Assembly: GCA_963806355.1 (NCBI GenBank)
Contig: CAWDXN010000002.1
Coordinates: 51,326 to 115,325, forward strand
Reading direction: 5' to 3'
From: Methanomassiliicoccaceae archaeon
GTDB lineage: Archaea > Thermoplasmatota > Thermoplasmata > Methanomassiliicoccales > UBA472
DNA length: 64,000 nucleotides
The notes beneath the pieces were generated by a model. It made no database searches, was not told the DNA's origin, and was given only the letters and a program-made list of their open reading frames with translations. The translations under genes were made by a program, and so were the position numbers. Within the stretch, counting starts at the first letter, position 1. The number at the start of each line of letters is the position of its first letter. Below, piece after piece: positions 8,299-51,957 of the stretch.

Positions 8299-8328
8299 AA
8301 TCCGTTCCTATTACCGGTGAAATAACGG

Positions 8329-13243: not shown

Positions 13244-13253
13244 AAAAGGTTCT

Positions 13254-21018: not shown

Positions 21019-21168
21019 GGCAGTGAGGCTTTCTAGGTCCAGATGGTCAGGTGAGGTCATGGATCTATTTTCTCGGGATCCCCAGTACATGTATAGCCAA
21101 CCATGATCATCGTTCTCGAACTCCTTGGCATGAATCCGTGAAGAAGAAAAAGTAGTAGATTCCTTTCG

Positions 21169-22045: not shown

Positions 22046-22168
22046 CAGAAAACAACTATTTTGCTGACTTTAAATACTTTATTCATTCTTTTTTGACGAT
22101 GATTGTTATTGGAATAGTTCTTGCTTTTTCAACAACCTTGAAATCCTTTTCGGTCGTTGCCATCGAAT

Positions 22169-22981: not shown

Positions 22982-23028
22982 AGGTCCCATCGGCCAAGAT
23001 TAAATATCACCTAGCCAATCGCAACGGC

Positions 23029-23541: not shown

Positions 23542-23652
23542 TAGCGAAAGATTTATTCAAAATGAGGAATTCCTCGGCTCTACTCTATCCCCTTGCTCTC
23601 AAAGGCAATTTGGGGTGAGATATCTGACCCATGAAAATGGGAGGGATGAACA

Positions 23653-24099: not shown

Positions 24100-24130
24100 A
24101 CCTTTTCAACAAATGGTCCATAGGACCAAC

Positions 24131-24144
24131 TTCTTTTTTATTTT
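24131..24144 (+). terminator. Oligo-T tract downstream of the TerB gene
   Basis: The tract ttcttttttatttt lies 30 nt after the TerB stop, at the junction of convergent genes. Confidence 0.3.
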
Positions 24145-25210
24145 CCGATCTCGGCATTGAGCCTGCGTATCTGCAGACAACGGAACAAGGATTCACATTC
24201 CAAGGCCTTCACCGAGCGCCTTTTTTCCTCCAATCCCATGCGCATCCCTAGGACCCAGACACCATTGTTGCTCTCTGGTAGGTCTGTGCGGGAGAAGTAT
24301 CTGACATGCCCCACCTCCAGTCGATCGTCCATTATCTTGACCGACCTTCTGTACCAATCGTGCATCGGTGCCTGTCTGGACAGTGCCTAGCAGCTCAAGG
24401 AGGAGGAGCATCCGGGCAAATTCCCTGCCCGTCACATATTCTCCCTGGTACCCTGGCAGATGGACGCTCCAACCCATCATGTAATATTGTCCATCGTGTC
24501 GAACGACGCCGTATCCTGGCCAGAGCGATTGGTATTCGGGACTTAGGACCAGTTCGATCACCGTCTCGACCTTCGATCTCAGGTCAGCATCGCCCATGAT
24601 GCTCTCGGAGTGGAGGAATGCGTACAGGTCATAGATCCAGGGCAGTTTAAGGTCCTCATCTGGGATAGAGTTCTGGATTGAGCAGAGGGGACCTTCGGAA
24701 GGCCTTTGGATATCCCGGGAATGTGTCCTGAGGGATGTACGCATGCTCGAGATCAGGCCTTCTCGCAAAATCGTAGACCGTGTCCAAGCGATGCCTGACC
24801 CAAGCATCGATGGCCCCTTCCTCATAACCCAACATGGTCAGGAACGCGGCGCAGATGGTCCTATGCAGGACCGGGAGGTATCCTTGGTGCGGGAGGTCTA
24901 TCTGCTCCTCCATCCATCGTTGGAAAGGAGCGACCCGATCGTCTAGGACCGGCACGCCCCTTCTCAATCCGAACTCGAACAATTTACCCATGACGTTCTC
25001 GAACGACTGAGGGATGGCCCCGTGCAGGGTATGGCGGTCGCACTCGCTTGGGATCCTTTCGAGCCAGGAACTCACCAGAGGGGAGGCCAACAGCTCGGTC
25101 AATTCCACGATCGACCCGTTCCCATCTTGATCGTGCCCTTTAGATAACCGATACCTGATCACAGGCCCAGCGTTCTCCATCAGCCATCGGGCGATATCTG
25201 CGTTCTCCAT
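24138..25210 (-). CDS. Hypothetical protein of about 357 aa with no motif I recognise; two frame breaks
   Basis: ORFs 24656-25210, 24193-24825 and 24138-24365 join in successive +1 steps (...SPLLNPE / IPDEDLKLPWIYDLYAF...GYGVVRHDGQYYMMGWSVHLPGYQGEY... / ...HDWYRRSVKIMDDRLEVGH...). Confidence 0.5.
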
Positions 25211-25335
25211 GTTCCCCGGACCGTTGGGATGTCACTGGGATGATTATAATCCTATCTCTCGCTCCCTTGGGCCACGGTCAGACCGGCGTCATCATCATTA
25301 CGATGCTTACATGGCCCGCAAGGATGGCGATCATA

Positions 25336-25935
25336 TCAGGAGATGGTCCCAGTCCCTCTCCAATCCTTCTTTAGGAGCGCGAAGTATACCTCATCAAAAT
25401 ATTGTCCATCGTAGAACACCCGCTCGCGAAGGACGCCTTCCTCCTTGAACCCATATTTATGTAACAGCGATCGCGACCCGACATTGATGGCCAACGGGAC
25501 CGCTTCCAACCTGTTCAGGCCCACCACCGTGAAACCATAGGTGATGATGGGCATAAGGACCTCGGTCATGATGCCCTGCCTCCAATGGTCCGGATCAAGC
25601 TCGTAGCCCAGCTCTGCGCAATGGTTTGAAAGATGGAAGTTCCAGAGACAGACCATGCCGATGACCCGGTCGTTTGGCATCAATTCTATGGTCCAGATCA
25701 TGGCTGAATGTTTTTCGGTGGCATCGATGCAATCCCGGACCCATTTCCTCGTATCCTCGATGGAACGATGAGGCGCTTCCCCATATAGGCAGGTCACCCG
25801 GGGGTTCGATTTGGTGGCAAACAAGGTCTCCGCGTCCTCGAGGACCATTTTTCGTAATCGTAACCTCTCCGTCGAAAAGGATGCTTGATGGGTGAATTCA
25901 TCAAATGGTTCCATCGGACGTTTGAACACCGTCAT
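25336..25935 (-). CDS. GNAT-family N-acetyltransferase (RimJ/RimL-like)
   Basis: 199-aa intact ORF with TERLRLRKMVLEDAE and the acetyl-CoA loop region WRQGIMTEVLMPIITYGF...LNRLEA. Confidence 0.8.
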   Translation of the reverse strand: MTVFKRPMEPFDEFTHQASFSTERLRLRKMVLEDAETLFATKSNPRVTCLYGEAPHRSIEDTRKWVRDCIDATEKHSAMIWTIELMPNDRVIGMVCLWNFHLSNHCAELGYELDPDHWRQGIMTEVLMPIITYGFTVVGLNRLEAVPLAINVGSRSLLHKYGFKEEGVLRERVFYDGQYFDEVYFALLKKDWRGTGTIS

Positions 25936-26305
25936 CGATAATTGAAATTTCGCATTCTCTGGTAGGAAGACCGCCCAAGTAGGTCATAGGGGGTGTAGGT
26001 GATGGAGTTTAAATGCACTGGACAAAATATTTCCCCCCGTTTCTCCTCCCTTGGCTATATCAAGCAACGCCTCTCTTCTTTGAAACGATCACGTCCAGAT
26101 AGTATCGGTTAAAATTCTGCGATCGGGAAAGATCGTGTAGTTCACAGAATCCAACAAAGATGATATCCCCTGAGTAAATCTCAGATCCCTGAAACATGCA
26201 ATATGGTCATGCTGGGGAACTCACTTCTTCTGCATCGATATAAATTAAACAATATGGTAATAAAATATTCAATGAAATCAATAAAAAATTGTAAAACATC
26301 TGAGA

Positions 26306-26437
26306 TCATTTCTTTTTCATCTTAGCCAGCTTCTTCTTCGCTGCCCCACTGCCCGATGCAGCTTTGCTCTCTAACGCTGCCATCTTTTCATTCTTTCCTG
26401 CCTTTTGCTTTTTTATATCATTCTTCGAAATGCTCAT
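26306..26437 (-). CDS. Candidate 43-aa lysine-rich small protein
   Basis: Hand translation gives MSISKNDIKKQKAGKNEKMAALESKAASGSGAAKKKLAKMKKK. A TATA-like element (reverse strand ataaatag) lies about 25-30 nt upstream of the ATG, which would suit a leaderless mRNA. It is below the ORF-track size cut-off. Confidence 0.3.
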   Translation of the reverse strand: MSISKNDIKKQKAGKNEKMAALESKAASGSGAAKKKLAKMKKK

Positions 26438-26645
26438 GCTCCCGTAAGCAGTAATTTTCTATTTATGTGATGAGCATCCACCACGGATAAGTGGGCAGAA
26501 ATAATCTGGAATCGCAAGAATAATGAGAAAGTCAAGAAAAAACCCTATGCATGTCGATTGGTTTTAAGGCTCTAGCTCAAGCCAGCCATCAGGACCGAAA
26601 AGGATTGAATTGAAATCAGAAAAATAAATGTCTGGATGAGAAGAA

Positions 26646-26721
26646 TGGTGGGCTCAGCCGGATTCGAACCGGCGACCTTCTCCGTGTCAGGGAAACGTCA
26701 TAGCCACTAGACCATGAGCCC
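26646..26721 (-). tRNA. tRNA-Val (anticodon GAC) with encoded CCA
   Basis: Hand-folded cloverleaf. Acceptor GGGCTCA/TGAGCCC, anticodon stem TTTCC/GGAGA, loop CTGACAC, T-arm GCCGG-TTCGAAT-CCGGC, discriminator A, then CCA. Confidence 0.9.
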
Positions 26722-26832
26722 GTGCGTTGTCGCAGTAAAGCGTTCTACTCTATATGTCTTTCGTTATCGTCCTGAAAGCACTGGCAGTCCCTACGTCACT
26801 TGTCCTGGTGAGAAGGAATAATTTTTTATTAG

Positions 26833-28119
<1,287 letters not shown>

Positions 28120-36776: not shown

Positions 36777-37553
36777 ATGATGCTCGATATCCTGAACGAC
36801 ATCGCCGACCGGGTGGCCGAGAAGGTCAGACCGAGATGGCGCGAGGCCTGCATGGGCGAGGAGCTGGAGATGGGGGCGGACGGCACCCCCACTTTGTTGA
36901 TCGACCGTCTGGCCGAGGAGATCATCATAGACCACGTCAAGCGCTCTGGACTGTCCTGGGACATACTGAGCGAGGAGGCGGGCCGCGTAGGGAATGGCGG
37001 GGATAGGACCTTGGTCATCGACCCGATCGACGGCACCTACAACGCGATCATGGGAATACCGTTCTACAGTGTGTCATTGGCCCTAGGCAGGGAGAGCATG
37101 TGCGACGTCGACACCGCGGTGGTGTTGAACCTGGTGACCGGCGACCGGTACACCGCCATCAAGGGCAAGGGCGCCTGGTTGAACGGATGTCGGATCCAGA
37201 CCAGGAGGCTGGACCTCAAGCAGGCGGTGTTCCTGGTCTACATGGGGCATTTCGCCACCGACAAGGACTTCCGCATTGCCCGCATGGGGCGGAGATGCCG
37301 CTCCCTCGGATGCAGCTCCCTGGAACTGGCATTGGTGGCTCAGGGCAGCGCCGACGGCTATTACCTTCACACGGACGTCTACGAAAAGGCCATCCGCGTG
37401 GTGGACATCGCCGCCGCGGCCTTGATACTGCGCGAGGCCGGCGGGGACCTCGTCGACCTTAAAGGAGGCAGGTTGGACATGCCCTTCGACCTGAGCACGA
37501 GAAGTAACTTCTTAGCCTATGGCGACGAATCTATGCGCGAGGTGCTGCGATGA
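36777..37553 (+). CDS. Inositol monophosphatase / FBPase-family phosphatase (possible NADP phosphatase)
   Basis: Motifs: ILSEEAG, VIDPIDGTYN, SLGCSSLELALVAQGSADGY. Starts MMLDIL at 36777. The upstream part of ORF 36282-37553 is antisense to the kinase gene. Confidence 0.85.
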   Translation: MMLDILNDIADRVAEKVRPRWREACMGEELEMGADGTPTLLIDRLAEEIIIDHVKRSGLSWDILSEEAGRVGNGGDRTLVIDPIDGTYNAIMGIPFYSVSLALGRESMCDVDTAVVLNLVTGDRYTAIKGKGAWLNGCRIQTRRLDLKQAVFLVYMGHFATDKDFRIARMGRRCRSLGCSSLELALVAQGSADGYYLHTDVYEKAIRVVDIAAAALILREAGGDLVDLKGGRLDMPFDLSTRSNFLAYGDESMREVLR

Positions 37554-38359
37554 GATTCGGCATGAGCGTCAACATGGACATACCGGACGCACCCCGTCTG
37601 GCCAAGAAGGTGCTGGGGCTATTGAAGGGGCACGAGGTGCTGCTGGAGAACGAGGTCGCGGCCCGGCTCAAGCGCCCCGGCATGAAATTGGACGACATGG
37701 ACGTGGACATGGTGGTGGCGGTGGGCGGGGACGGCACCATTCTCAGGGCCTTGCAGCACAACACCGCCCCGTTGTTCGGCATCAACGCCGGCGACCTCGG
37801 TTTCCTCACCACGGTCACGGAGGAGGAGATGGAGGAGGGCGTGGAGAACATCCTCAACGGCAATTACTCCTTGGAATCCCGCAGCAAGCTGCAGACGACC
37901 GTCGGCGGCAAGCGACTGCGCGACGCCGTGAACGAGGCGGTGGTGCACACCGCCCAGATCGCCAAGATCCGTCACTTCCAGGTCCACGTCGACAACGAGC
38001 TCGCCATCAATGTCCGGGCGGACGGCATCATCGTCTCCACCCCGACCGGTTCCACCTGCTACGCCATGAGCGTCGGTGCCCCGCTGGTCGACCCCCGGGT
38101 GGACGCGCTGGTCATCGTGCCCATGGCCCCTTTCAAGTTCGCCGCCAGGCCGGTGGTGGTGCCCTCGAGCAGCAAGATCACCCTGCGCGTGATGCGGCCG
38201 AAGGAGTGCCTGGTGGTCATCGACGGCCAGGACTCAGAGCTGATGGCCGGCAATGAGACGGTGGAGTTCACCGTGGCCTCGACCAAGGCGCGCTTCGTCA
38301 CCTTCGGCAAAGGCTTCTACACGCGTACCCGAGAGAAGCTGATGGGATCCCTATGCTGA
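37550..38359 (+). CDS. nadK: NAD kinase (PpnK-type)
   Basis: Motifs: VVAVGGDGTILRA, GINAGDLGFLT, NEAVV, ADGIIVSTPTGSTCYAMSVGAP. There is a 4-nt overlap with the IMPase gene. Confidence 0.92.
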   Translation: MRFGMSVNMDIPDAPRLAKKVLGLLKGHEVLLENEVAARLKRPGMKLDDMDVDMVVAVGGDGTILRALQHNTAPLFGINAGDLGFLTTVTEEEMEEGVENILNGNYSLESRSKLQTTVGGKRLRDAVNEAVVHTAQIAKIRHFQVHVDNELAINVRADGIIVSTPTGSTCYAMSVGAPLVDPRVDALVIVPMAPFKFAARPVVVPSSSKITLRVMRPKECLVVIDGQDSELMAGNETVEFTVASTKARFVTFGKGFYTRTREKLMGSLC

Positions 38360-38733: not shown

Positions 38734-39960
38734 TCAGAAGACGCGCGTGTCTGGACCGATGTTCCCCCGGGCCAGGGTGCCCATGCCGATGGTGCACCGT
38801 TCCCAGATGATGGTGCCCGGTTCGATCATGCTGTTGATGCCGGTCTTGACGTCATCGCCCATGATCACGCCCAGCTTCCTCAGTCCGGTGTCGATGAGCT
38901 CGTCGCGGAACGTGACCTTGATGCTGCGGTTGTCGAAACGGAGGTTGGCCACCTTGGTGCCCGCGCCGAAGTTGCACCGCTCCCCGATCACGCTGTCACC
39001 CACGTAGTTGTGGTGGGGGATGTGGGTCCCGGCCATGACGATGCTGTTCTTCACCTCGACGGACGCCCCGATCTTGACCTTCTCCGCCAGGCTGGTCGCC
39101 GGTCGGATATAGCAGTTCGGGCCGACCTCGCAGCCCTTGGATATGTACACCGGTCCTTGGACATAGGCACCGCTGCGCACCACCGCCCCCTCCTCCACCA
39201 CCACGTTCCCTTTCAGGACCGCCCCCTCCTCCACCTCGCCCCGGATGTCGCGCTGGACCTCCGACATCAGGATCTCGTTGGCCTTGAGCAGGTCCCAGGG
39301 CCGCCCCACATCCATCCAGTAGCCTTCCAGACGTTGGACCACCAGGTCGTTGGAGGCGGCGAACAGGTTGAGCGTGTCGGTTATCTCGAACTCCCCGCGG
39401 GGGGACCTCTCGGTCCTGCGGATGTAAGGGAAGATCTCTGGGGTGAGGATGAACATGCCCGCGTTGATCAGATCGCCCGGGGGGTCCTTGGGCTTCTCGA
39501 CGATGCGTGCCATGCGGCCCTCCCTCTCATCGATGACACCGAAGCGGGAAGGGTCCTGCACGCGGACGGCGCATATCATCGCCTTGCGCTCCCTGCGGTA
39601 GCGGTCCACCGCCGCCTTGATGTCCTGTCTCGATAGGAGCACGTCCCCGTTGAGGCATACGAACTCCTCATCGATGTGACCCTCGGCGATCCCGATGGCG
39701 TTCGCCGTCCCCAAGCGCTCCTTCTGCTCCAGGAAGTTGATGTTCAGGCCCAGGCTCGAGCCGTCGCCATAATGCTCCTTGATGCGGTTGGCCTTCCAGC
39801 CCACTAGGATGGTGATGTCCTCCACCCCGGCCGAGCGCAGCGATTCCATGAGGTGGGTCAGGTACGGTTTGCCTGCCAACGTCAGCAGTGGCTTCGGTAT
39901 GTTGGAGGTGAGCGGTCTGAGCCTGGTCCCCTCTCCCGCGGCAAGGATGAACGCCTTCAT
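38734..39960 (-). CDS. Bifunctional sugar-1-phosphate nucleotidyltransferase/acetyltransferase (archaeal GlmU-like)
   Basis: Reads MKAFILAAGEGTRLRPLTSNIPKPLL, then GTANAI, GYWMDVGRPWDLL, and a long C-terminal hexapeptide-repeat domain. Its ATG overlaps the glmM stop (ATGA). The first 104 codons of ORF 38734-40272 are discounted. Confidence 0.85.
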   Translation of the reverse strand: MKAFILAAGEGTRLRPLTSNIPKPLLTLAGKPYLTHLMESLRSAGVEDITILVGWKANRIKEHYGDGSSLGLNINFLEQKERLGTANAIGIAEGHIDEEFVCLNGDVLLSRQDIKAAVDRYRRERKAMICAVRVQDPSRFGVIDEREGRMARIVEKPKDPPGDLINAGMFILTPEIFPYIRRTERSPRGEFEITDTLNLFAASNDLVVQRLEGYWMDVGRPWDLLKANEILMSEVQRDIRGEVEEGAVLKGNVVVEEGAVVRSGAYVQGPVYISKGCEVGPNCYIRPATSLAEKVKIGASVEVKNSIVMAGTHIPHHNYVGDSVIGERCNFGAGTKVANLRFDNRSIKVTFRDELIDTGLRKLGVIMGDDVKTGINSMIEPGTIIWERCTIGMGTLARGNIGPDTRVF

Positions 39961-41264
39961 TTCAGGCACCTCTTCACGATGCCCCTGCCCAGGTTCATGA
40001 GGCGGTCCAGCTCCTCCTTGTTCCTGGCCTCGGCGTTGACGCGGACCTTGGGCTCGGTCCCGGAGAGCCTGACCAGGAACCAACCGTCCTGGTACTCCGC
40101 GCGCCAGCCGTCCACGGTGATGAGGCGGTTGCACTTGAGGTTGGCCATCTCGCCCCCGATCTTGCCGCGGACTATGTCCCTCTCCTGGGATTGGAACATG
40201 AAAGACTCCCGGGCGGAGGGATATGAAGGCAAGGCGTCGACCAGCTCGGAGAGGCGGTTCTCCGACACACATTTGGCCAGAAGGGCCGCGGCGTACACGC
40301 CGTCCGGACAGTAGGTCTGCCGGGGGAAGATGAAGGTGCCCGATGGCTCGCCTCCGAAGGGGAAGCTGCTCTTCTTGAGCGCCTCCGCCACGTAGACATC
40401 GCCCACCTTGGTGCGGACCACGTTGCCCTCGACCATGTCGTCCAATACCATCGAGGCGTCGATCGGCGCCACGATGCCGTCCGCCTCGACCAGCGAGGCG
40501 AACAAGGCCAGCAACCGGTCCCCGTCGATGAAGCGGCCGTTCTCGTCCATGGCCACCATGCGGTCGCCGTCGCCGTCGTGGGCGATGCCCAGGTCCGCGC
40601 TCTTGGCCAACACGGCGTGGCGCAGGTCGCCCAACTGTTCCTCGGTCGGTTCAGGCAGTCGACCGGGGAAGTATCCGTCGGGCTGGGCGTTCAGGCTGAG
40701 CACGCTGCAGCCCATCTCGCGCAGGAGGATGGGGGTGATGGTGGTGGTGGCCCCGCAGCCGCAGTCCACCACCACGTTGACATGGCATTGGCCCAGGGAC
40801 CGTATCACCTCTTGGATGTGGTCATGGATGGCGCCGGCGTAATGGCTCTGCTGCCCCACCTTCCTCCAGCCAGGCATGGTCTTGGAGGGTTCGGTGATGA
40901 GGCTCTCCACCTCGTCCATCTGTCGGCTGTCGAACGCGCTCCCGTCCGGGTTCCACATCTTCACGCCGTTGTATTCTGCTGGATTGTGAGAGGCGGTGAC
41001 CATCAGACCGCAGCTATGGCCGAAGGCGGCCCTGGCCAAGGTCGGCGTGGAGACCATGCCGGTCAGGTGCACGTCCGCTCCAGAGGCCATGGCCCCTGCT
41101 GCCAACGCGCTCTCCATCATATCGCTGCTGGTCCGGCAGTCCTTGCCGATGATGACGTCTTTGTAAAGCTGCCCCACCGCGATCCCGATCCTGAGGGCGA
41201 GGTCCGCTGTGATCTCGCGGCCCACCACCCCGCGGATCCCTGACGATCCGAACAACGAAGTCAT
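39957..41264 (-). CDS. glmM: Phosphoglucosamine mutase (phosphohexose mutase family)
   Basis: Motifs: MTSLFGSSGIRG, TASHNPAEYNGVK, HDGDGDRM, GGEPSG, RLSGTEPKVRV. A TATA-like element (forward catatattct at 41291-41300) argues for the Met at 41264 rather than the ORF-track start at 41351. Confidence 0.85.
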   Translation of the reverse strand: MTSLFGSSGIRGVVGREITADLALRIGIAVGQLYKDVIIGKDCRTSSDMMESALAAGAMASGADVHLTGMVSTPTLARAAFGHSCGLMVTASHNPAEYNGVKMWNPDGSAFDSRQMDEVESLITEPSKTMPGWRKVGQQSHYAGAIHDHIQEVIRSLGQCHVNVVVDCGCGATTTITPILLREMGCSVLSLNAQPDGYFPGRLPEPTEEQLGDLRHAVLAKSADLGIAHDGDGDRMVAMDENGRFIDGDRLLALFASLVEADGIVAPIDASMVLDDMVEGNVVRTKVGDVYVAEALKKSSFPFGGEPSGTFIFPRQTYCPDGVYAAALLAKCVSENRLSELVDALPSYPSARESFMFQSQERDIVRGKIGGEMANLKCNRLITVDGWRAEYQDGWFLVRLSGTEPKVRVNAEARNKEELDRLMNLGRGIVKRCLK

Positions 41265-41522
41265 TTCCAGCGCGGTCATTGACATCAGCCCATATATTCT
41301 TAGCGTGCCGGTATGGAGAAAAAATGTCTTAACTGGAGCATTATCCAGCATAAATTTCTATGGGGGTAAAAAATAAATTAAAAATCAATCGTTAATCCGA
41401 CAAAATCTGGCTCTCTTGACCGAAAAAATGGTTTATTTTATAAGTAAAATAAGTGCTGGTCAGTGAGCATTATCAGATAAATATTATATATTAGTAAAGT
41501 TCATTACAATCTGGACATAAGG

Positions 41523-41875: not shown

Positions 41876-43456
41876 CTACCATATGCCCTTATCGACCTCG
41901 ACGTCGGTGACCAAGGCCCTTCCGTATGCCTTCTGGAAGGCCTTGTCGTCCGCCTCGACCCCCCAGCACTCCAATTGGCACTCCCCCTTGGAAAGGATGC
42001 GGAGCACCGCCCGTTCCTTGGTGGCCCGAATGAAGCCAGTGCCCTCGACCATGCCCACGTGGCTGCGGTCCAGGCTCTCCGCGATGCGCAAAAGGGCGGA
42101 AAGCTTGGAGATGGTCTCCTGGGCGTTGCGGTCCAGTCCGTCCATCTCCGGGTCATTGTTCCTTGGGACCTTCTTGCGATGGAACTTGGCTATGTTGGCG
42201 ATCACCGAGGTCTCCTTCTGGTCGAAGCCCAACAGCTCGGAGTTGATTATGATGTAATAGGAGTGGAGGTGATGGTTGTTGAAGGAGATGAAATCGCCAA
42301 TGTCATGAAGGAAGGCAGCGTGCGAGAGCATCTCCCTCTCCCAACCGCCGAAGGCATGCAGCTTCACCATCCGGGCGGAATCGAAGAGCTGCAGCGCCAG
42401 GCGTTGCACGGTGCGAGCATGGTCCTCGTCCATGTCGCAGCTGCGGGCCAATTGCAGCACGCTTCTCTCCCTCACGTTGACCGTGTCCGAGTCCGGCAGC
42501 AGTCCGATCTCCCCCAGGTATTCCATGAAGAGCCCGTCCCTCAACCCTCGCTCGCTCACCACGACCTCATCGATGCCCAACTCGTCCATCAGCGTCTCCA
42601 GCGTGGCCGCGCCTCCGATGATGATGTCCGCCCTTTCCGGGTTCATCCCGGGAACGGCCCTTCGCTTCTCCAGGCTCAGTGAGCGGAGGTGGGCGGAGAG
42701 CTTCTTGAGGTGGGTGCGACGCAGACGGAGCGGTTGCATCTCTTCAAGGTCGAACATCAGGACGGCAATCTGGGCCAGGTTGATGGCGGTGCCTGAGGAT
42801 GCCACCGTGACCGAGATCTTGTGCTCGGCCACCTCCTTCTTGGTGCGGATGATGGCGGCCCTGACGTACTTGCGCATCTTGTCATACATGGCATCGGGTA
42901 TCGGTCCCGTGTGCCCCTCGGGGACGAAGAGGGTGGTCATGCGGATGGCGCCCAGCTTCAGGCTGTCGAGGTAGTGGTATTGCTTCTGGTCCCCGATGAC
43001 GACCTCGCAGCTGCCCCCGCCGATATCGACGAAGAGTCCCTTCTTCTTGCCCAGGTGCTGCCCGCTCGAGACGCCCATATAGATCAATCGGGCCTCCTCC
43101 CGACCGGAGATGACGCTCACATCCAGCCCCGCCCCCGATCTGATATGGTCGAGGAAATCCTGTTGGTTGGTGGCCTCACGCGCCGCCGAGGTGGCCACCG
43201 CGATGACGTGATCGGCCCGGAAGTTCTTGGCCAGCTCGGCGAACTTGCGGCACACCACCACCGCCCTGTCCATGGCGGCAGGCTTGAGCACGTTGTCCTT
43301 GAACTCCGATTCGCCGAGACGCACCACCTCCTTCTCTTGGCGCAGGACGGTGTAGGAGCCGTTGCTGTTGATGCGCACCACCAACAGGCGTATGGAGTTG
43401 GTCCCGATGTCAATGAACGCCGCCACGTGCGGCTTCCCATCCCAAGGCATCGTCAC
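41876..43456 (-). CDS. ppx: Exopolyphosphatase / GppA family (Ppx-GppA) with a C-terminal HD domain
   Basis: 526-aa intact ORF with AAFIDIGTNSIRLLVV, VIAVATSAAREA, FVDIGGGSCEV and C-terminal FLHDIGDFISFNNHHLHSYYII...KFHRK. The start (GTG 43456 or ATG 43450) overlaps the upstream stop. Confidence 0.9.
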   Translation of the reverse strand: MTMPWDGKPHVAAFIDIGTNSIRLLVVRINSNGSYTVLRQEKEVVRLGESEFKDNVLKPAAMDRAVVVCRKFAELAKNFRADHVIAVATSAAREATNQQDFLDHIRSGAGLDVSVISGREEARLIYMGVSSGQHLGKKKGLFVDIGGGSCEVVIGDQKQYHYLDSLKLGAIRMTTLFVPEGHTGPIPDAMYDKMRKYVRAAIIRTKKEVAEHKISVTVASSGTAINLAQIAVLMFDLEEMQPLRLRRTHLKKLSAHLRSLSLEKRRAVPGMNPERADIIIGGAATLETLMDELGIDEVVVSERGLRDGLFMEYLGEIGLLPDSDTVNVRERSVLQLARSCDMDEDHARTVQRLALQLFDSARMVKLHAFGGWEREMLSHAAFLHDIGDFISFNNHHLHSYYIIINSELLGFDQKETSVIANIAKFHRKKVPRNNDPEMDGLDRNAQETISKLSALLRIAESLDRSHVGMVEGTGFIRATKERAVLRILSKGECQLECWGVEADDKAFQKAYGRALVTDVEVDKGIW

Positions 43457-45717
43457 TGTATAGCCAATCGTCTATCAAAAGCCTTCTCCAGCAGTTTCCC
43501 TTTCTTCCTTCCCGCCTCGATCTCGTAGCGGTGGGACAGGGGGTCCTCGACCTCGATGATGATGACGTGGGGGTCGGCCCAACAACCGACGACCCGGACA
43601 TCGTGGGCATGCCTGACGTCCAATCCGTCCGCCACCCTCAATATGCCCGCCAGGACGTCGACCGTTCTGCGCTCCCTCTTGTTCAGGACCTTGTAGTTGC
43701 CATGGTCTTCCTTGGGCAGCCCCTTGCGATGGTAACGGGTCAGGCTGGCCACGATCAATCGCTCCCTCTCGTCCAAGGGCAGATGGTGGTCTGACATGAC
43801 CAGGTTGAAGGAGGCGAGGTTGTGGTCGATGCCGCTCTGGGACCAGCCGATGTCATGCAGCAACGCCCCGCATTCCAGCCAATAGCGCTCCTGGGCGCCA
43901 AGGCCGTGCTCCCCCTGGAGATGGTCGAAGAGCTGCAGCGCGGTGCCTCGCACGAAGAGCGAATGACCGTCCAGGTGGCCAAAGCGTCGGGCCTCCCCCT
44001 CCACCAGCTCCACTTTCTTGGCCATCTCGAGATCGGATTGGGCGTGGACCTTCTCCTCCGGCTCATCGGTCCCGCGGCCGGCCAGGTACATCTGGGCCAA
44101 CTTCTTAGGCAATCCCACGGCGACGATACGGTCCGCCACCTCCTTCAGGTCGTATTGGACGCGAACGAACTCGACCAGCAGGCTCTGCGCGTCCAACAGC
44201 ACGTAGGAGGCGCGCGGGTCACCTCCCACGGGTCGGCCCACGCTCCCCGGGTTGAGGAAGCGCATATCCCCCACGGCCAAGTCCATGCAGCGATGGGTGT
44301 GGCCCAGCACCACCACGTCGGCTTCGGCGACCTTGGCTAACGTTTCCAATCGTTCCGGGTCGGTGCTCTCGGTGACAGGTTCCAAGATCGAGGCCGGGCT
44401 GGCATGGGTGATGAGGAACCTCTTGCCCCCCATCTCGAAGCGGACCTCCTCAGGAAGGCCCAGCAGGAAGGAGATGGACGCGTCGTTGAGGTTTTGGAGC
44501 GCATGCGTCGCCACCTTCCGTTTCAGACGATCGCCCCCTTGGTTCGGCGGCGCCCCTCCCATCCTTGCCGCCAATATCCCTTGGTCATAATTGCCTAGGA
44601 CAGTGATGATACTTGGATCGCGGAGGAACTGGACCACCTCGTTGTCGAACGGACCCCAGCCTATGCAGTCCCCCGCGTTGATGAATACCTCCGCCCCCCG
44701 TTCCGCCGCGTCCTCCATCACCGCCTCCAAGGCGGGCAGGTTGCCGTGCACATCGGCGATCAACGCGATCTTCGCCGAAGGGGACAGGCCTGAGAGGTCG
44801 ATGCGCTTCGACCGTGGCCGTATGGCGGCGAGAAGGTCGGTCTCAAGCGCCCTCAGGAGACCGTTCCCTTCCCAATCCCTCCACATGGTCACCAACTGAC
44901 CGTACAACGACGATCGGGTCGTCTGGCGGTCCTGGAGCAACGCCGCCACCGCCGGCCCGCAACGCCACCGCAATCGTTCCAACAAGGCCTCGATCCAAAC
45001 ATCACAGTCGTGCATCTCCCCCAGGATATCCTGGAGCTTCTTGAGGCGGGAGATGTACTGCTTCAGACCATCCTCGTAGGCGGGGGCGAAGGTCTCCAAG
45101 GTATAACGTAGCCACTTGGCGGCTATGCGCATCTGGTGATGCCTCAGCACTGCCTTCTCGTCGGCCACACAATCTGAGAAGGCGAGCAGCTCCTTGCGGC
45201 GCACCACGACCTGGCCCAGGGCAGCGGTCCGCACATCCTGCCACATGAGCTCGTCCAGGGGCAAGGCCTTGGACTGAAGCAGGGCATGCCATCCAGGGAT
45301 GAGCCCCTCTTCCTCGAACTTCACCAGGGCCTCCTCCACATCGGGCTGGACGGCCGCCCTTCTCCCGACCAGCTCCTGGAGCAGGACGTCAAGCTCCGCT
45401 TTGGAGGCCTCGTCCTTGGAGGCCATGTACTTGCCCAGCAGCAGGATCTGCACGTCCAGGTCCCGGGCCGCGCCTAACGAGCGGGTCACGGCCTTCACCC
45501 TCTTCATCCAGAGCTTGGCTTGCTCCTTCTGGAAGCAACCGTCGAAGATGGTCAGCGCGGCGCGAAGGCGGCGGGAATAGACCCGGGACTGATGTATGAA
45601 CTCGACTGGACCTTCCCCAGAGGCACCCTGCAGTTGCTGATGCAGCGTCGTCAGATATTCATCGATGGCCTTGGCCCCGAAGGCCGTCATGCCGATGGTG
45701 CACTCACGGCTCGCCAT
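43453..45717 (-). CDS. Three-domain protein: CHAD + calcineurin-like metallophosphoesterase (YfcE/MJ0936-type) + HD domain
   Basis: 754-aa intact ORF. CHAD helices: FIHQSRVYSRRLRAAL, HHQMRIAAKWLRYTLETF, LQDILGEMHDCDVW. Metallophosphoesterase motifs: IALIADVHGN, NAGDCIGWG, LGNYDQ, LITHASP, VLGHTHR. HD domain: GALLHDIGW...RYHRKGLP, paralogous to the Ppx C-terminus. Confidence 0.8.
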   Translation of the reverse strand: MASRECTIGMTAFGAKAIDEYLTTLHQQLQGASGEGPVEFIHQSRVYSRRLRAALTIFDGCFQKEQAKLWMKRVKAVTRSLGAARDLDVQILLLGKYMASKDEASKAELDVLLQELVGRRAAVQPDVEEALVKFEEEGLIPGWHALLQSKALPLDELMWQDVRTAALGQVVVRRKELLAFSDCVADEKAVLRHHQMRIAAKWLRYTLETFAPAYEDGLKQYISRLKKLQDILGEMHDCDVWIEALLERLRWRCGPAVAALLQDRQTTRSSLYGQLVTMWRDWEGNGLLRALETDLLAAIRPRSKRIDLSGLSPSAKIALIADVHGNLPALEAVMEDAAERGAEVFINAGDCIGWGPFDNEVVQFLRDPSIITVLGNYDQGILAARMGGAPPNQGGDRLKRKVATHALQNLNDASISFLLGLPEEVRFEMGGKRFLITHASPASILEPVTESTDPERLETLAKVAEADVVVLGHTHRCMDLAVGDMRFLNPGSVGRPVGGDPRASYVLLDAQSLLVEFVRVQYDLKEVADRIVAVGLPKKLAQMYLAGRGTDEPEEKVHAQSDLEMAKKVELVEGEARRFGHLDGHSLFVRGTALQLFDHLQGEHGLGAQERYWLECGALLHDIGWSQSGIDHNLASFNLVMSDHHLPLDERERLIVASLTRYHRKGLPKEDHGNYKVLNKRERRTVDVLAGILRVADGLDVRHAHDVRVVGCWADPHVIIIEVEDPLSHRYEIEAGRKKGKLLEKAFDRRLAIQ

Positions 45718-47889
45718 GCCATTCCCCCCGGTGGTCTATCAGCCATTGCTGGGAATTCAATCTCTTGGCGCCTTCTTTCACTGGGACCGGACGATACGTG
45801 CCATCCGGCAACAGCTCCCTCGCCTTGGCATTGTCCTTGAAGTGGGTCTCCAACATCAGCTTCACAACGTTCTTCCGCAGTGTCGGGTCCGGTATGGGGA
45901 AGAGCACCTCCACCCGCTTGTTCAGGTTGCGGGGCATCATGTCGCTGCTGCCCAGGAGCACCTCCGGGTTGCCACCGTTGTTGAAGTAGTAGATGCGGGA
46001 GTGCTCCAGGAACCGGCCTACGATGGAGGAGACCTTGATGTTCTCGCTGATCCCCTTGAGCCCGGGACGAAGGGCGCACAGGCCGCGGACGTTGAGGTCG
46101 ACCTTGACGCCTGCCTGGGACGCCCGGTACAGGGCCTTGATGACCTCCTTGTCCAGCAGGGCGTTCAGCTTCCAGGCGATGTGGCCGTTCTTCTTGTCCT
46201 TGTGCCGCTCGATCTCGCGGTCGATGCGGCGGATGATCTCGCGGCGCAGCGAGTGCGGCGCCACGAGGAGCGTCTTGAAGTCCTCCTTGTGCGAATATCC
46301 GGTCAGAGCGTTGAAGAGGTCCTGCACGTCGGAGCCGATGTCCGGGTCGGCGGTGACGTAGCCGATGTCCCCGTACACCCGGGAGGTGACGGAGTTGTAG
46401 TTGCCGGAGCTGAGATGGGCGAATGCGCACGATGCCCTTCTGGGACCGCTTCACGATCAGGCACATCTTGGCGTGGACCTTCAGGTCCAACAGCCCGTAC
46501 ACCACATGCACGCCTGCCTGCTCCAGCATCTTCGCCCAGACGATGTTGTTCTCCTCGTCGAAGCGGGCCTTCAGCTCCACCAACGCCGCCACCTGCTTGT
46601 CGTTCTCCCGGGCCTGCATCAAGGCGTCGATTATGGGCGAATGCTTGTCGATGCGGTAGAGGGTGATCTTGATGGCCAGCACGTCCGGGTCCACCGCCGC
46701 TTGGCGCAGCATGTTCACCACGGTGCTGAAGTTGTCATAGGGATGATAGAGGACGTGGTCGCGCTGCTCCAGAGCGGTGAGCAACTTCTTCTCGTTGGCC
46801 AGCTCGCTGGGGATGAAGCCGGCGAAGGGCATGTCCTTGAGGTCGGGTCGGGCCAGGCCCAGCATCTACCAGAGGTCGACCAGCGCCAGAGGGCAGCTCT
46901 CCTCGTATACCAGGTATCCGGGCAACCCGAGCTTGTTGGCGAACATCTGCCTGAGCTTCTCGGGCATGGTGCTCTGCACCTCCAGACGGGAGGGCGCTCC
47001 GATGCGACGTTGTTCCACCCCCTCCTCGATGGCCGTGAGCAGGTCCTCTGCCTCGTCCAGCTCGATCTCGAAATCGGCGTCGCGGGTGATGCGGAAGGCA
47101 AAGGCCCCGGTGATGAGCATGCCAGGGAAGAGCAGGTCCAGGTTGGACATTATCACGTCCTCCAGGAACACCAAGTGGAAGGAAGTCGTCGACTTGTCCG
47201 GCTCAAATATCTCATTGGGTATGGTGATGAGGCGCTGCATGAGATTGACCGGTATCTTCACGCGGGCCAAGCGCTCCGCTCCCTGACCGTCCACCAACTG
47301 CACTGCCAGATTGATGCTCAGGTTGGATATGAACGGGAAGGGATGGGCCAGGTCCAAGGCCAAAGGGGTGAGGGCGGGGTAGATGGCGCTCTCGAAGTAG
47401 TCCCGCACCCATTGCTTCTGTTTGGGGGCGAGCTCCTTCACGTTGTGGATGTGGATGCCTGCTTGGGCCAGCTTGGGCAACGAGGTCGCTGAACCAGGTG
47501 GCGCAGTATTCCTCCAGGATGGGTTGCAGCTCGGACCGGATGGCCATGATCTGTTCCAGCGGCGTCATGCCGTCGGGAGGGGCTTCCAAAGCCCCGCGCA
47601 TCAGTTGACGCCTCAGACCGGACACGCGGATCATGAAGAACTCATCCAGGTTGCTGCCGCAGATGGCCAGGAACTTGACCCTTTCCAACAACGGATGGTT
47701 CACGTCCTGGGCCTCCTCGAAGATGCGTCGGTTGAAACGCACCCAGGCGATCTCCCGGTTGATGAAGTTGGTCGGGGCGTCAAGGAGCGAGCCATCATCA
47801 CCCGCGGGCCTCTTCTCCTTCTTCTCCTTCCTTACCTTCTTGTCCTTCTCCTTCCGGTCCTTAGGCGTCATTTGTTCTCCCCCGAACAA
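45704..47889 (-). CDS. ppk: Polyphosphate kinase 1; two frame breaks (about 47480 and 46424) and one in-frame TAG (46866-46868)
   Basis: Motifs: FINREIAWVRFNRRIFEEA, NLDEFFMIRV, LTPLALDLAHPFPFISNLS, RITRDADFEIE, LYHPYDNF, LVELKARFDEENNI, VHAKMCLIV, FAHLSSGNYN, FLEHSRIYYF. The start is TTG 47889 or ATG 47871. The stop overlaps the next gene by 14 nt. Confidence 0.9.
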
Positions 47890-48036: not shown

Positions 48037-48120
48037 GCAGGGATAGCCAAGCCTGGCCAACGGCGCTAGATTCAGGGTCTAGTCCTTAGTGGTCCAAGGG
48101 TTCAAATCCCTTTCCCTGCA
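48037..48120 (+). tRNA. tRNA-Leu (anticodon CAG), long variable arm, no encoded CCA
   Basis: Hand fold. Acceptor GCAGGGA/TCCCTGC, anticodon stem CTAGA/TCTAG, loop TTCAGGG, T-arm AAGGG-TTCAAAT-CCCTT, discriminator A. Confidence 0.88.
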
Positions 48121-48255
48121 CTCTCCTTTCTCCATCTCTAATGACAAAGGGCGACATTCGTTCCGATTTCCATACCCATCCGCTGTCATGATTCATCATA
48201 TATCCCTCTTACCGACATTCATACATGAGGATCGCCCAGGAAGGGAACAAGATAC

Positions 48256-48750: not shown

Positions 48751-49929
48751 TCAACTCTCCATATGGCCGGTCCCCTCGACACCCTTATCCATGAACAAAA
48801 CGGTCTTTGAGGCCAGCCTTCCTGCGTCAAGGAACATCAAGGTGCCTAGCAGGGCAAGTCCGAACCCCACGATCCAGCTCCCCGGGATATCGAAGATCAC
48901 CTCACCCCCCTCCTGAGTGGAGAATCCCCCGGCCGCCATGATCGGTATGAATGCCAAGAAGGTACGGTAGAAGATACGTCGGTCCGTCACGGCCCAGGCG
49001 GACAACAGGATGCAGGGCAGCACGTAATAGCCATTATGCATCTTGGGGTAAACCACCAGGAAGACGAGCACAACTAGTGTGACGCTCTGCCACACCCCGA
49101 GCCTCCGCTTGTGACAGAAGAGGTAGGCGATCAGCAGCGAAACGAGCACCAAAGCCAGCTCCACCTCCTTGGGCAGTCCGTAACCGCCCACTCGCAGGAA
49201 GTGCCACATGCTTACCCCCCCGCTCTCCCGGCCGCTCACCCCCATCGTGTAGAACTCCAGGAAGAAGACGAAATCATCATAGCACGTCAGAGCAAAGTAG
49301 CCGATGGCGACGACGGTGACCAATGCGACGATGAGGAGGAGCAATGTGCGGTCCTTCCAGTTCCTCCAACGCAAGAACTCGATCGGAAGCAAGAGCACCG
49401 AGAACATCTTGGTCCAGATGCCCACACCGATGGCGAGGGCCGCTGGCAATTTGTAATTATAGAGCATGAGCAGGACAGCCCCAAAGAAGACGAACGCGAC
49501 GATGGCCTCGTCCTCAATAGCCACCGATTCGATGAGCAGGAAGGGGGTGATGACGGTCGCAAAGCCCACTTGGAAGGCCTTAACCTCGTTCCATCGCCTC
49601 AAAGAGAGATAGAGCATGATGGCGGTGATGCCTGCGAAGAAGGAGAAATAGAGGCCCCAAACCCATTCATGCTCGCCCCCTCCCATGAGCTGCGCCGGCA
49701 CCAACATGTAGTTGATGATCGGGGGCGTCTCCGTGCCAGTATCGCGATAGAGCAGGCCCCCGTCGATGATGGTCTGGGCCCTGGCCTGGTAAAGCTCAAG
49801 GTCGGGATGATGGACCGCCCCCTGGATGGCCAGGTCGACGGAGCTGTTGATGATCACACCCCCTCCGTAGATCAAAATGGTCAGCAGTATGAGGATGAGA
49901 AGCTTCCTGCGCACGCTCATCCTCAGCAC
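48751..49929 (-). CDS. Multi-pass membrane glycosyltransferase, DUF2029/GT87-like (GT-C type), copy 1
   Basis: 392-aa intact ORF with about 10 helices. The first loop reads YQARAQTIIDGGLLYRD...TPPIINY. It sits in a cluster with a GT2 polyprenyl-phosphate glycosyltransferase. Confidence 0.5.
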   Translation of the reverse strand: MLRMSVRRKLLILILLTILIYGGGVIINSSVDLAIQGAVHHPDLELYQARAQTIIDGGLLYRDTGTETPPIINYMLVPAQLMGGGEHEWVWGLYFSFFAGITAIMLYLSLRRWNEVKAFQVGFATVITPFLLIESVAIEDEAIVAFVFFGAVLLMLYNYKLPAALAIGVGIWTKMFSVLLLPIEFLRWRNWKDRTLLLLIVALVTVVAIGYFALTCYDDFVFFLEFYTMGVSGRESGGVSMWHFLRVGGYGLPKEVELALVLVSLLIAYLFCHKRRLGVWQSVTLVVLVFLVVYPKMHNGYYVLPCILLSAWAVTDRRIFYRTFLAFIPIMAAGGFSTQEGGEVIFDIPGSWIVGFGLALLGTLMFLDAGRLASKTVLFMDKGVEGTGHMES

Positions 49930-49958
49930 CCGCTCGTTGCATGAATCGATCAGCTGGT

Positions 49959-51215
49959 CTAGGGACGTGTCTCCACCTCCAGGCCCTTATCTGAGGGCCC
50001 ACTCTCCAGGAAAGTTCTCTGCGGAAGGGACAACCAAGCGGCGAGGATGAACAGCAGCGTCCCAGCGAGCGATAGGAACAGACCGATGATCCAGCTATCC
50101 TCGAATAGGTTGGAGATGGTCGAGTCCACATCGGGCAGGAACCCGGACGTCAGGCTCAGCGGGATGAAGGCGAGGTATGGCAGGACGGCCACGCGCCAAT
50201 CCCTCGCCCCCCAGACAGTCAGGAGCACGGTGGGCAGGATGTAGTAGCCCATGTGCATCTTCGGGTAGAAGACGATGAAGACCACCACTACCAGGGTCAC
50301 GCTCTGCCACACCCCCATGCGCTTCCAGTAGGCGAAAAGGTAGGCCGCAAGGAGGGAGCCCAGGACCAGAGCCAGCTCCAACGCCTCCGGCAACCCGTAG
50401 CCACCGACGCTGCAGGAAGTTCCACACGCTCAGGCCCCCGCTGGACCGCTCCGGGTCGCCGAGGAAGTAGAACTCCAAGAATTCCAGGAACTCCTCGGGG
50501 CAGAGGATGAGGAAAGGTACCGTCACGATCAGGGTGACCGCGACGACGATGACCACCAGCTCCCACGTTCCCTCCAGGTGGGCAAGCGAAGGAACTGGGT
50601 GGGAAGAAGCAGGACCGACCACATCTTGGTCCAGATGCCCGATGACGATGGCGAGGGCGGCGTAGCGGTTCGAGCTTCAGCAGCATCAGCAGCACGCGCG
50701 GTGAAGAAGACGAAGGCCACCAACGCCCCATCTTCCCCGATGTGGGTCTCATCGATGAGGAAGGGGCACAACAAGGCCAGGAACGCGACCTGGAATGCGC
50801 GGACATCATCGTAACGGCGCAGCACCAAGTACAGCATCATGGAGAGGAGGAAGGCAAAGGCCGTCTGATAGGCGGCCCACACCCAGTAGTGCTCCGCCCC
50901 GCCCAGCACCTGGGCTGGCACCAGGAAGTAGTTGATCAGCGGCGGGGTCTCTGTGTGCACGTCGCGATAGAGCAGTTCCCCGTCCAAAATGGCCTGGGTG
51001 CGAGCTCGGTAGATGTCAATGTCATATGAGGCGGTCGGATCGGCGATCCAGGTATCGGCGATCATTACCCCGTAGACGATTATGGCGATGACCAGAAGGA
51101 ACAGGACCTTTCTCCGGGGGCTCCATCCGCGGACAGGCTTGAGGACATCATCGATCAACTTATCGATGCGACTCCGTGGACCATCCGGTTGGTCGGTCAT
51201 ATGCCCACTCTCCAA
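49959..51215 (-). CDS. Multi-pass membrane glycosyltransferase, DUF2029/GT87-like, copy 2 (tandem paralogue); about 6 frame breaks within 50390-50720
   Basis: It is collinear with copy 1 (YRARTQAILDGELLYRD...TPPLINY; GIWTKMWSVLLLPTQFL; FLEFLEFYFLG; VWQSVTLVVVVFIVFYPKMH). The pieces lie in ORFs 50529-51215, 50297-50809, 50095-50622 and 49959-50393. Confidence 0.5.
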
Positions 51216-51234
51216 TCATCCACCTCTGTGACCA

Positions 51235-51957
51235 TCACTTCCTCTTCCGCATCGCCTTGATCTCTTCCTTGTGGTCCCGTTTGAACTTGTTATAATCGCC
51301 CAGGGTGATGAAGGGCACGGTGTAGAACTTGATATAGGACTTACCACTGGGCCTGGCGTAGTGCACGATGGGTATCTCGGCGATCCTCATGCCCTTCAGC
51401 GAGGCCAAGGGGAGGATGAAGCGGTGCAGGCCCCGGTATCCCTCCGGGTCGAAGCCCATGGCCACGGCCTTGTCGCGACGGAAGGCCTTGAAACCGCTGT
51501 TCTGGTCCTTCACGTCCAGTCCGAACTTCCTCTGGATGATCCAACGGTTGTAGGTCCGGGAGATCAGCTTACGAACATAGGGATCGGTGCGCTGACTGCG
51601 CCACCCCGTGACGACATCATAGCCCTCGTCCATCTTGGTCAGGAATAGCGGGATCTCCTTCGGTTCGTACTGTCGGTCGCCGTCCATGATGATGGCGATG
51701 TCGCCTCGCGCCTCCTTGAACCCGGTGCGGATGGCGTAGGAACGCCCTAGGTTGGTGGGATGATGCACCGCCCGAACCTCTTGGTGTTGCTTGGCCAGTT
51801 CATCGCAGACCTGGGGGGAGCGGTCCTCAGAACCGTCGTCCACCAGGAGCACCTCGCCGTCGATGCGGTTGTCCTTATAGACGGCCAGGATGTCCTCGGT
51901 CAAAGGCGCGATGTTGTCTTGCTCGTTCTTTATCAGAAGGATGGTGGTGCATCTCAA
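51235..51957 (-). CDS. GT2 polyprenyl-phosphate glycosyltransferase (dolichyl-phosphate mannose/glucose synthase-like)
   Basis: 240-aa intact ORF with LLVDDGSEDRS, GRSYAIRTGFKEARGDIAIIMDGDRQYEP, YDVVTGWR. Confidence 0.8.
   Translation of the reverse strand: MRCTTILLIKNEQDNIAPLTEDILAVYKDNRIDGEVLLVDDGSEDRSPQVCDELAKQHQEVRAVHHPTNLGRSYAIRTGFKEARGDIAIIMDGDRQYEPKEIPLFLTKMDEGYDVVTGWRSQRTDPYVRKLISRTYNRWIIQRKFGLDVKDQNSGFKAFRRDKAVAMGFDPEGYRGLHRFILPLASLKGMRIAEIPIVHYARPSGKSYIKFYTVPFITLGDYNKFKRDHKEEIKAMRKRK

Follow-up and report, generated by a model that had tools for sequence, protein, structure and literature searches.

A CHAD-metallophosphoesterase-Ppx domain III fusion encoded between ppk1 and ppx in archaea is most likely a polyphosphate-anchored phosphohydrolase

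The CHAD domain is a specific polyphosphate (polyP)-binding module that increases the activity of YgiF, a polyphosphatase fused to it (PMC6537752). In the Escherichia coli exopolyphosphatase PPX, the two C-terminal domains mediate substrate binding and constitute the polyP-binding module PPBD (PMC13511156), and the C-terminal domain of bacterial PPX also modulates the catalytic N-terminal half (PMC11234463). Two protein-based probes for polyP are treated in the former source: CHAD and PPXΔ12/PPBD, the latter for chains of >35 residues (PMC13511156). In eukaryotes, polyP is cleaved by enzymes of the metallophosphoesterase (MPE) fold, including Ppn1, Ppn2, and ACP5/TRAP (PMC6973038, PMC3817253, PMC4350845); in archaea, a published survey detected no homologs of the eukaryotic endopolyphosphatases (PMC6864096). 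Here, we analyze a gene located between ppk1 and ppx in a 64-kb stretch (the window) of contig CAWDXN010000002.1 from a Methanomassiliicoccaceae archaeon. Its product, a protein of 754 amino acids (aa) to which all residue numbers refer, unites homologs of both established protein polyP probes with the hydrolase fold that gives the eukaryotic endopolyphosphatases. This fusion is most likely the middle component of an archaeal ppk1-X-ppx operon and a polyP-anchored phosphohydrolase with the MPE as its catalyst. Archaeal polyP metabolism is poorly characterized, and this third operon gene, conserved in Bathyarchaeia and Methanomassiliicoccales/Thermoplasmatota, is apparently unstudied. These lineages are abundant in soil, peat, sediment, and gut.

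The three domains of the fusion that a preliminary description of the locus had recognized from the sequence (CHAD, MPE, and Ppx-like HD) were all recovered above the curated Pfam cutoffs. The N-terminal CHAD domain (PF05235) is covered from position 2 to 227 of the 228-position profile (E = 2.6e-45; 155.6 bits against a cutoff of 25.6). Metallophos_2 (PF12850) follows at residues 316 to 511 (E = 2.7e-24; 86.4 bits, cutoff 27), and this central part belongs to the YfcE subfamily TIGR00040 of NCBIfam (69.8 bits, cutoff 56.25). Ppx-GppA_III (PF21447) spans residues 585 to 699 (E = 1.1e-9; 38.8 bits, cutoff 27.3) and is overlapped by HD (PF01966; 24.2 bits, cutoff 22). The tested signatures of CHAD, of YfcE/MJ0912-type MPE, and of Ppx domain III/HD are thus all present in the protein. 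Conversely, the domain that defines Ppx/GppA (PF02541, ASKHA domains I and II) gave no Pfam match at E ≤ 0.1, and CYTH (PF01928), which defines the CYTH-CHAD enzymes, was found neither in the protein (Pfam) nor across the window (tblastn). Therefore, the fusion lies outside both known polyphosphatase families, although it probably works like them.

In its architecture, the fusion amounts to a PPX with an MPE instead of the catalytic ASKHA half and with an additional CHAD domain, and it parallels the CYTH-CHAD arrangement of YgiF. As in the YgiF-type enzymes (E. coli YgiF, PDB 5A60), a CHAD domain predicted to bind polyP is joined covalently to what is probably a metal-dependent phosphoanhydride hydrolase; unlike in YgiF, the catalytic fold is a binuclear MPE rather than CYTH, CHAD is N terminal rather than C terminal, and a PPX C-terminal domain is present in addition. 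With the Ppx/GppA proteins (E. coli PPX, 1u6z; Deinococcus radiodurans PPX, 8jgo; and the product of the neighboring gene), the fusion shares the homologous domain III and, in the case of the neighbor, the ppk1 operon, but an MPE occupies the place of ASKHA domains I and II. Moreover, the solved bacterial PPXs carry HE at the dyad where the fusion and its relatives carry HD. The stand-alone CHAD phosins (Ralstonia eutropha PptA type, Sulfolobus solfataricus SsCHAD) likewise combine a CHAD domain that has the polyP-binding residues with gene locations in polyP clusters, but they lack a catalytic domain, whereas in the present family CHAD and a predicted hydrolase form one protein or, in bacteria, CHAD is encoded immediately upstream of an MPE-HD protein.

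The fusion gene is tightly linked to its neighbors. The ppk1 stop codon lies 14 nucleotides (nt) inside the fusion open reading frame (ORF), and the ppx ATG is 2 nt past the fusion TGA, with an alternative GTG start that overlaps this stop; because the three genes overlap or abut in this manner, translational coupling is suggested. The neighboring ppx product carries PF02541 (E = 2e-62) and PF21447 (E = 7e-33), has an ortholog of 524 aa in the related locus L001, and scores slightly under the TIGR03706 cutoff (287 versus 307 bits). One genome per GTDB species was scanned, which yielded 391 genomes with a relative of the fusion; synteny and taxonomy were counted in the 75 best loci. In 68 of these, ppk1 is directly upstream on the same strand; ppx is directly downstream in 58, and the complete order ppk1-fusion-ppx was likewise found in 58 of the 75. 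In some Bathyarchaeia, the fusion is present a second time at a site apart from ppk1, as a longer protein of 823 aa (L045, positions 25 to 5033; also L051 and L057), and the L045 copy adjoins PPK2 and a ppx 3′ end. Given the ppk1/ppx synteny in the 75 loci and the second copy beside PPK2, the fusion gene belongs, as a conserved component, to the polyP gene clusters of two archaeal phyla. Within the window itself, tblastn detected no further homologs of CHAD, CYTH, PPK2, or PhoU. In both L045 and L057, the second copy is followed by a gene for an SRPBCC (Polyketide_cyc2) protein, and a DDE transposase is encoded nearby in L057.

The integrity of the ORF deserves attention because the surroundings are error prone, with frameshifts in ppk1 and in a GT87-family gene of the window, such that the three-domain protein could be taken for an assembly or frameshift artifact, or a chimera of separate genes. 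This explanation is ruled out: collinear orthologs that are 92 to 95% identical occur in three other Methanomassiliicoccaceae metagenome-assembled genomes (MAGs; L002 to L004), >120 diverse homologs share the full-length architecture, and, altogether, >170 proteins from independent assemblies display it. Thus, the fusion is not a frameshift artifact, as the preliminary description had argued from the intact ORF. Within the ORF, the sole indel difference from the closest relatives is a compensated deletion/insertion pair at 44551/44555, 4 nt apart, in a variable loop that is modeled with lower confidence.

An AlphaFold2 (AF2) model of the complete fusion, built with 120 homologs, has a mean predicted local distance difference test score (pLDDT) of 91.1, with every domain confident, and a predicted template modeling score (pTM) of 0.65. 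In this model, the CHAD region (residues 8 to 251) is all helical, consistent with the two four-helix bundles of the CHAD fold. In a Foldseek search against the PDB, the N terminus matches the Chlorobium tepidum CHAD-polyP complex (6qva) at a template modeling score (TM) of 0.69 to 0.74, and the fold as a whole matches 6qva, 3e0s, and 6qv5 at TM 0.6 to 0.74. Residues H253, R256, R260, R296, R418, and Y419 of the C. tepidum domain bind polyP, as established by mutagenesis (PMC6537752). Their counterparts in the fusion (H42, R45, R49, R85, R204, and Y205, respectively) are 97 to 100% conserved in 203 CHAD-containing relatives. On these grounds, the CHAD domain is predicted to be a polyP-binding module. 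It is connected to the MPE by helices at residues 255 to 285 and 287 to 299, which are modeled with confidence (mean pLDDT of 84 to 98 in 10-residue blocks over residues 251 to 310).

The MPE domain contains the complete motif set listed in the preliminary description: D322-V-H324-G-N326, G349-D350, G375-N376-Y-D378, H438, and G472-H473-T-H475. Among 376 relatives, D322, H324, N326, D350, N376, D378, H438, H473, and H475 are 85 to 100% conserved in every architecture that bears an MPE. The α/β sandwich, which includes a helical insertion at residues ∼380 to 420, superimposes on 3rqz, 1nnw, and 3qfm at TM 0.76 to 0.84 (Foldseek against the PDB). The nearest structures overall are 3rqz, 1nnw, 2gju, and SapH (3qfm/3qfn), at TM ∼0.8 and with sequence E values between 1e-17 and 5e-15. 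SapH (Spr1479 of Streptococcus pneumoniae) and the uncharacterized MJ0912-like proteins 3rqz, 1nnw, and 2gju are the best matches of the central domain and share with it both the helical insertion and a C-terminal NPGSVG...DGDPRA..Y region; unlike the fusion, they are single-domain proteins of ∼250 aa with neither CHAD nor a PPX tail, and SapH is described as a diadenosine tetraphosphate (Ap4A) hydrolase/phosphodiesterase, not a polyphosphatase. The eukaryotic polyphosphatases Ppn1, Ppn2, and human ACP5/TRAP share the superfamily fold and act on polyP, with cleavage at internal bonds as well (endopolyphosphatase activity), but belong to different MPE subfamilies, lack CHAD and the PPX tail, and are vacuolar or secreted. 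For Ppn1 (ASM-like) and Ppn2 (PPP-like), the known relationship to the fusion is that of a shared superfamily; no specific sequence relationship emerged, no yeast sequence having been compared with it.

These affinities bear on the substrate. SapH, the closest characterized relative of the MPE, cleaves a phosphoanhydride bond in Ap4A, as the titles of its PDB entries indicate, and the putative diadenosine tetraphosphatase 2qjc is also among the matches of the domain. Accordingly, the MPE might act on nucleotide-linked oligophosphates, namely Ap4A or Ap5A, nucleoside tetra- and oligophosphates made by PPK, or nucleoside triphosphates, in which case CHAD and the PPX tail would only localize it to the granule where such by-products arise. 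We consider this unlikely. The nearest characterized structure is indeed an asymmetric Ap4A hydrolase (TM ∼0.8), and PPKs can form oligophosphorylated nucleotides, as one report indicates (PMC7595981), but the identity to SapH is low (25%), no nucleotide-binding feature was identified in the fusion, and two polyP-binding modules combined with strict ppk/ppx linkage seem to exceed what mere localization would need.

The C-terminal part of the fusion is paralogous to the C terminus of the adjacent Ppx, as had been proposed, with 30% identity over 158 aa (BLAST; E = 6e-20). In sequence, the HD-like domain matches residues 339 to 485 of D. radiodurans PPX (8jgo; E = 3e-13), and in Foldseek, the C terminus matches PPX/GppA structures, including a C-terminal fragment of Yersinia pestis PPX (3rf0; TM 0.72). 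It harbors the H...HD...D metal-ligand signature of the HD superfamily (H585, H621-D622, and D697/D700), and the wider set of H585, H621-D622, H632, H663, R694, D697, and D700 is 97 to 100% conserved among 381 relatives. The residues around this domain were also modeled. In a second AF2 model, of residues 310 to 754 with 46 bacterial MPE-HD homologs, which addressed whether MPE and HD form a rigid unit (pLDDT 93; pTM 0.62), the linker that precedes the domain is disordered, and residues 556 to 558 fall below a pLDDT of 50 in both models. The final subdomain (residues 701 to 754) is composed of strands at 709 to 714, 718 to 723, and 750 to 753 and helices within 730 to 747; it resembles the extreme C terminus of archaeal Ppx by eye only, as the BLAST alignment stopped short of it.

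The conservation of these residues raises the question of whether the HD-like domain is catalytic. The preliminary description had envisaged CHAD tethered to two different phosphohydrolase folds, a view that needs revision because the homologous PPX C-terminal domains bind polyP and are not catalytic (PMC13511156, PMC11234463); a second site in the fusion is nonetheless possible. Such a dual-active-site enzyme, with the HD-like domain as a second metal-dependent phosphohydrolase, would be compatible with catalysis by the MPE; internal cuts could be made by one site, for instance, and end trimming by the other. The full H...HD...H...H...D set (H585, H621-D622, H632, H663, and D697/D700), the HD match above the Pfam cutoff, and the HD dyad in place of the HE of solved bacterial PPXs all speak for this arrangement, but we regard it as doubtful. 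The same His/Asp/Arg set is invariant in domain III of 59 genuine Ppx proteins encoded next to the fusion and its relatives, and is therefore a property of the domain family in these archaea rather than specific to the fusion. Furthermore, what is documented for the domain in PPX is that it binds polyP and modulates activity, with no catalysis reported there (PMC11234463, PMC13511156).

Database searches for the architecture showed that the fusion is not unusual, as first described, but represents a conserved family, common in Bathyarchaeia and in Methanomassiliicoccales/Thermoplasmatota, whose members are deposited under generic names. A word-indexed protein search returned 487 matches; the best 120 are all 720 to 850 aa long, have the same three domains, come from MAGs of Methanomassiliicoccales, Thermoplasmata, and Bathyarchaeia, and are named, if at all, “CHAD domain-containing protein,” “YfcE family phosphodiesterase,” or “putative phosphoesterase.” An exhaustive search of 1.84 billion representatives identified 512 proteins at E ≤ 1e-30. 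Cluster look-ups for a cultured host returned MAG or metagenome sources only. Among the 75 best loci, 54 are labeled Bathyarchaeota/Bathyarchaeia, 11 Methanomassiliicocc-, 4 other Thermoplasmatota or “Methanobacteriota,” and 3 bacterial. The triple fusions with bacterial labels (Acidoferrum, Methylomirabilota, and Limnocylindrales) were treated as misbinned, the proteins being 70 to 80% identical to those of Bathyarchaeia. Thus, of the expectation that the architecture is new, the part concerning its rarity fails on the numerous homologs, and the part concerning its characterization stands: no paper on it was found in the searchable literature. Specifically, full-text searches recovered no account of CHAD+MPE(+HD) or of the MPE-HD core, with an early mention in the 2002 CHAD/CYTH paper of Iyer and Aravind being possible, and the surveys of archaeal polyP genes do not mention the architecture (PMC6864096, PMC12995831). 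The fusion is, in short, a real and common family that is uncharacterized and whose domain logic extends known polyP-hydrolase designs.

The modules of the fusion also occur in other combinations. The 426 collected relatives include four architectures, CHAD-MPE-HD (171), MPE-HD (181), CHAD-HD (33), and CHAD-MPE (31); the two-domain MPE-HD type, with 951 clusters at E ≤ 1e-20, is broadly distributed among bacteria, where it is seen either bare or split from CHAD (Planctomycetota, Chloroflexota, and Poribacteria). Of six variant contexts inspected, four encode the missing module next door, and all six contain ppk1, ppk2, and/or ppx. Two loci, L077 and L078, comprise phoU, CHAD, MPE-HD, a short Ppx without domain III, and ppk1. 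L079 combines CYTH, ppk1, CHAD-MPE, a stand-alone HD-III, and ppx, and here the stand-alone domain is closer to the HD domain of the fusion (37%) than to Ppx domain III (28%). On a Phycisphaerales chromosome (L080), the order is CHAD, MPE-HD, ppx, and ppk1, and an Anaerolineae MAG (L081) has ppk1 and MPE-HD. A Poribacteria MAG (L082) carries PPK2, two thymidylate-kinase-like genes, a methyltransferase, CHAD, and MPE-HD, followed farther on by glucokinase and CYTH; the thymidylate-kinase-like genes belong to the family recently reported as PPK3 in Crenarchaeota. This L082 polyP island (positions 1209 to 11448) also encodes another Metallophos protein. Finally, an MPE-less locus with the order ppk1, CHAD-HD, and ppx was found on a contig whose downstream genes match those of the window.

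The MPE-less forms lend support to a different interpretation, in which the protein is primarily a nonhydrolytic granule organizer or regulator (“phosin”) that binds polyP through two modules and docks PPK1 and/or Ppx; the MPE would then have a protein substrate (for instance, the phosphohistidine of PPK1 or polyphosphorylated residues), be regulatory, or operate in trans with Ppx. Apart from the 33 CHAD-HD relatives, one of which occupies the same operon position, crenarchaeal polyP operons that hold a phosphohistidine phosphatase (SixA) plus CHAD (PMC12995831) fit this interpretation. The MPE domain additionally has weak NCBIfam matches to PrpA/PrpB-type protein phosphatases (E = 0.004 to 0.03) and a lambda phosphatase match in Foldseek. 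In L077 (7386 to 8390) and L078 (3411 to 4415), the Ppx, at only 334 aa, is devoid of domain III, and the MPE-HD protein encoded ahead of it has one, which hints that the HD-like domain could serve Ppx in trans in these clusters. However, the protein-phosphatase matches are far under the cutoff, the MPE ligands are strongly conserved wherever the domain occurs, and an interaction with PPK1 or Ppx is only supposed. We consider a primarily regulatory protein slightly less probable than one acting on nucleotides.

Turning back to a polyP-anchored phosphohydrolase, we find it very probable that the fusion binds polyP and functions in polyP metabolism. The ppk1-fusion-ppx order in 58 of the 75 loci, the split-gene versions in polyP clusters, and the retained CHAD contacts all support the general idea of a polyP-targeted hydrolase that had been put forward earlier. 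That polyP is also the physiological substrate of the MPE is a narrower claim, which we favor on balance. Under this proposal, CHAD and the PPX-type tail would grip a polyP chain or anchor the enzyme at a granule, and the dimetal center of the MPE would hydrolyze phosphoanhydride bonds of the bound chain. Because the MPE would hydrolyze the bound chain, the enzyme would act alongside, and not in place of, the coencoded ASKHA-type exopolyphosphatase; its niche could be substrates on which Ppx performs badly, such as particular chain lengths, internal bonds, or polymer bound to granules.

Several observations weigh against this proposal. The 33 CHAD-HD relatives without an MPE, one of them syntenic with the window, imply that hydrolysis is dispensable for at least part of the role of the family. 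With a canonical Ppx encoded next door, there is little apparent need for another polyphosphatase. Phosphodiesterase activity is typical of YfcE-type enzymes, and the substrates of SapH are nucleotides rather than polyP. Finally, the interdomain geometry is left undefined by the AF2 models (pTM of 0.65 and 0.62).

A bolder version holds that the CHAD, MPE, and PPX-tail family, fused or split, is the long-missing prokaryotic endopolyphosphatase that cuts internal bonds. The two binding modules would hold a long chain or the granule surface, cuts by the MPE would yield new ends for the processive Ppx, and the ppk1-X-ppx operon would cover the synthesis, fragmentation, and trimming of polyP in full. 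We offer this version tentatively and do not expect it to be correct. If the fusion is a polyphosphatase of either kind, it would represent a new catalytic fold for prokaryotic polyP turnover, account for a recurrent operon member that lacks annotation, and potentially offer a tool, either a polyP binder with two modules and high affinity or a processing enzyme. A regulator or a nucleotide hydrolase would still add a new layer of polyP control.

Table 1. Features of the polyP operon in the window, with the domains of the fusion protein
Feature	Coordinates	Strand	Basis or remark
CHAD-MPE-Ppx domain III fusion gene	43453..45717	-	Complete ORF, 754 aa plus TGA
CHAD domain, residues 17-245	44983..45669	-	PF05235; predicted polyP-binding module
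Helical extension and linker from CHAD to MPE, residues 246-315	44773..44982	-	Conserved R268, Y272, F275, W279
YfcE/MJ0912-type binuclear MPE, residues 316-547	44077..44772	-	PF12850, TIGR00040; predicted catalytic module
Flexible linker from MPE to HD-like domain, residues 548-583	43969..44076	-	Low pLDDT in AF2
HD-like domain homologous to Ppx/GppA domain III, residues 584-700	43618..43968	-	PF21447, PF01966
Small C-terminal α/β subdomain, residues 701-754	43456..43617	-	AF2 and conserved pattern KK.DLFEK.F
ppk1 (polyphosphate kinase 1)	45704..47871	-	Directly upstream; ORF fragments; intact 721-aa ortholog with PP_kinase domains in L001
ppx (Ppx/GppA exopolyphosphatase)	41876..43450	-	Directly downstream; 524 aa from ATG at 43450; PF02541, PF21447

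The ppk1 gene of the window is disrupted in comparison with two close relatives, by 1-nt insertions at about 47481 and 46423, and contains an in-frame TAG at 46866 to 46868 in place of the TTG (Leu) of the close relative L001. Neither insertion falls in a long homopolymer, and the flanking fusion and ppx genes are intact. These lesions could reflect a pseudogene or an assembly error. The L001 assembly, for its part, has a split phosphoglucosamine/phosphomannomutase gene (12365 to 13760; 112 plus 348 aa) where the window has an intact one (39957 to 41351; 464 aa), with a 1-nt difference at window position 41041. Sporadic frameshifts are therefore present in both assemblies, and assembly errors are a plausible cause.

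Within the compared region, frameshifts are most concentrated in the first of two tandem genes for GT87-family membrane glycosyltransferases (∼49795 to 50700, minus strand), which is split into several ORFs by ∼9 to 10 indels relative to a 94%-identical relative. At window positions 51217 to 51258, ∼1.6 kb of L001 (907 to 2509) is missing, an indel polymorphism; the L001 segment contains two hypothetical genes (399 and 103 aa) between GT2 and GT87. Rfam and tRNA scans of the window revealed no RNA gene bearing on the locus. An 85-nt tRNA-Leu(CAG) at 48037 to 48121 (plus strand), just upstream of the ppk1 promoter region, was predicted by ARAGORN and is absent from the Rfam gathering-threshold scan. 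Window positions 20001 to 28000 have a GC content of 0.53 to 0.55, compared with 0.59 to 0.64 elsewhere, and include a tRNA-Val(GAC) at 26646 to 26721; an island or a stretch of distinct composition is possible. Downstream of the polyP operon, genes for NAD kinase, an inositol-monophosphatase-family protein, a JAB/MPN protein, a sugar-nucleotidyltransferase, and a GlmM-like mutase are conserved. This set (window 37550 to 38359; L001; and the contig of P0169) persists even in the lineage whose CHAD-HD protein has no MPE.

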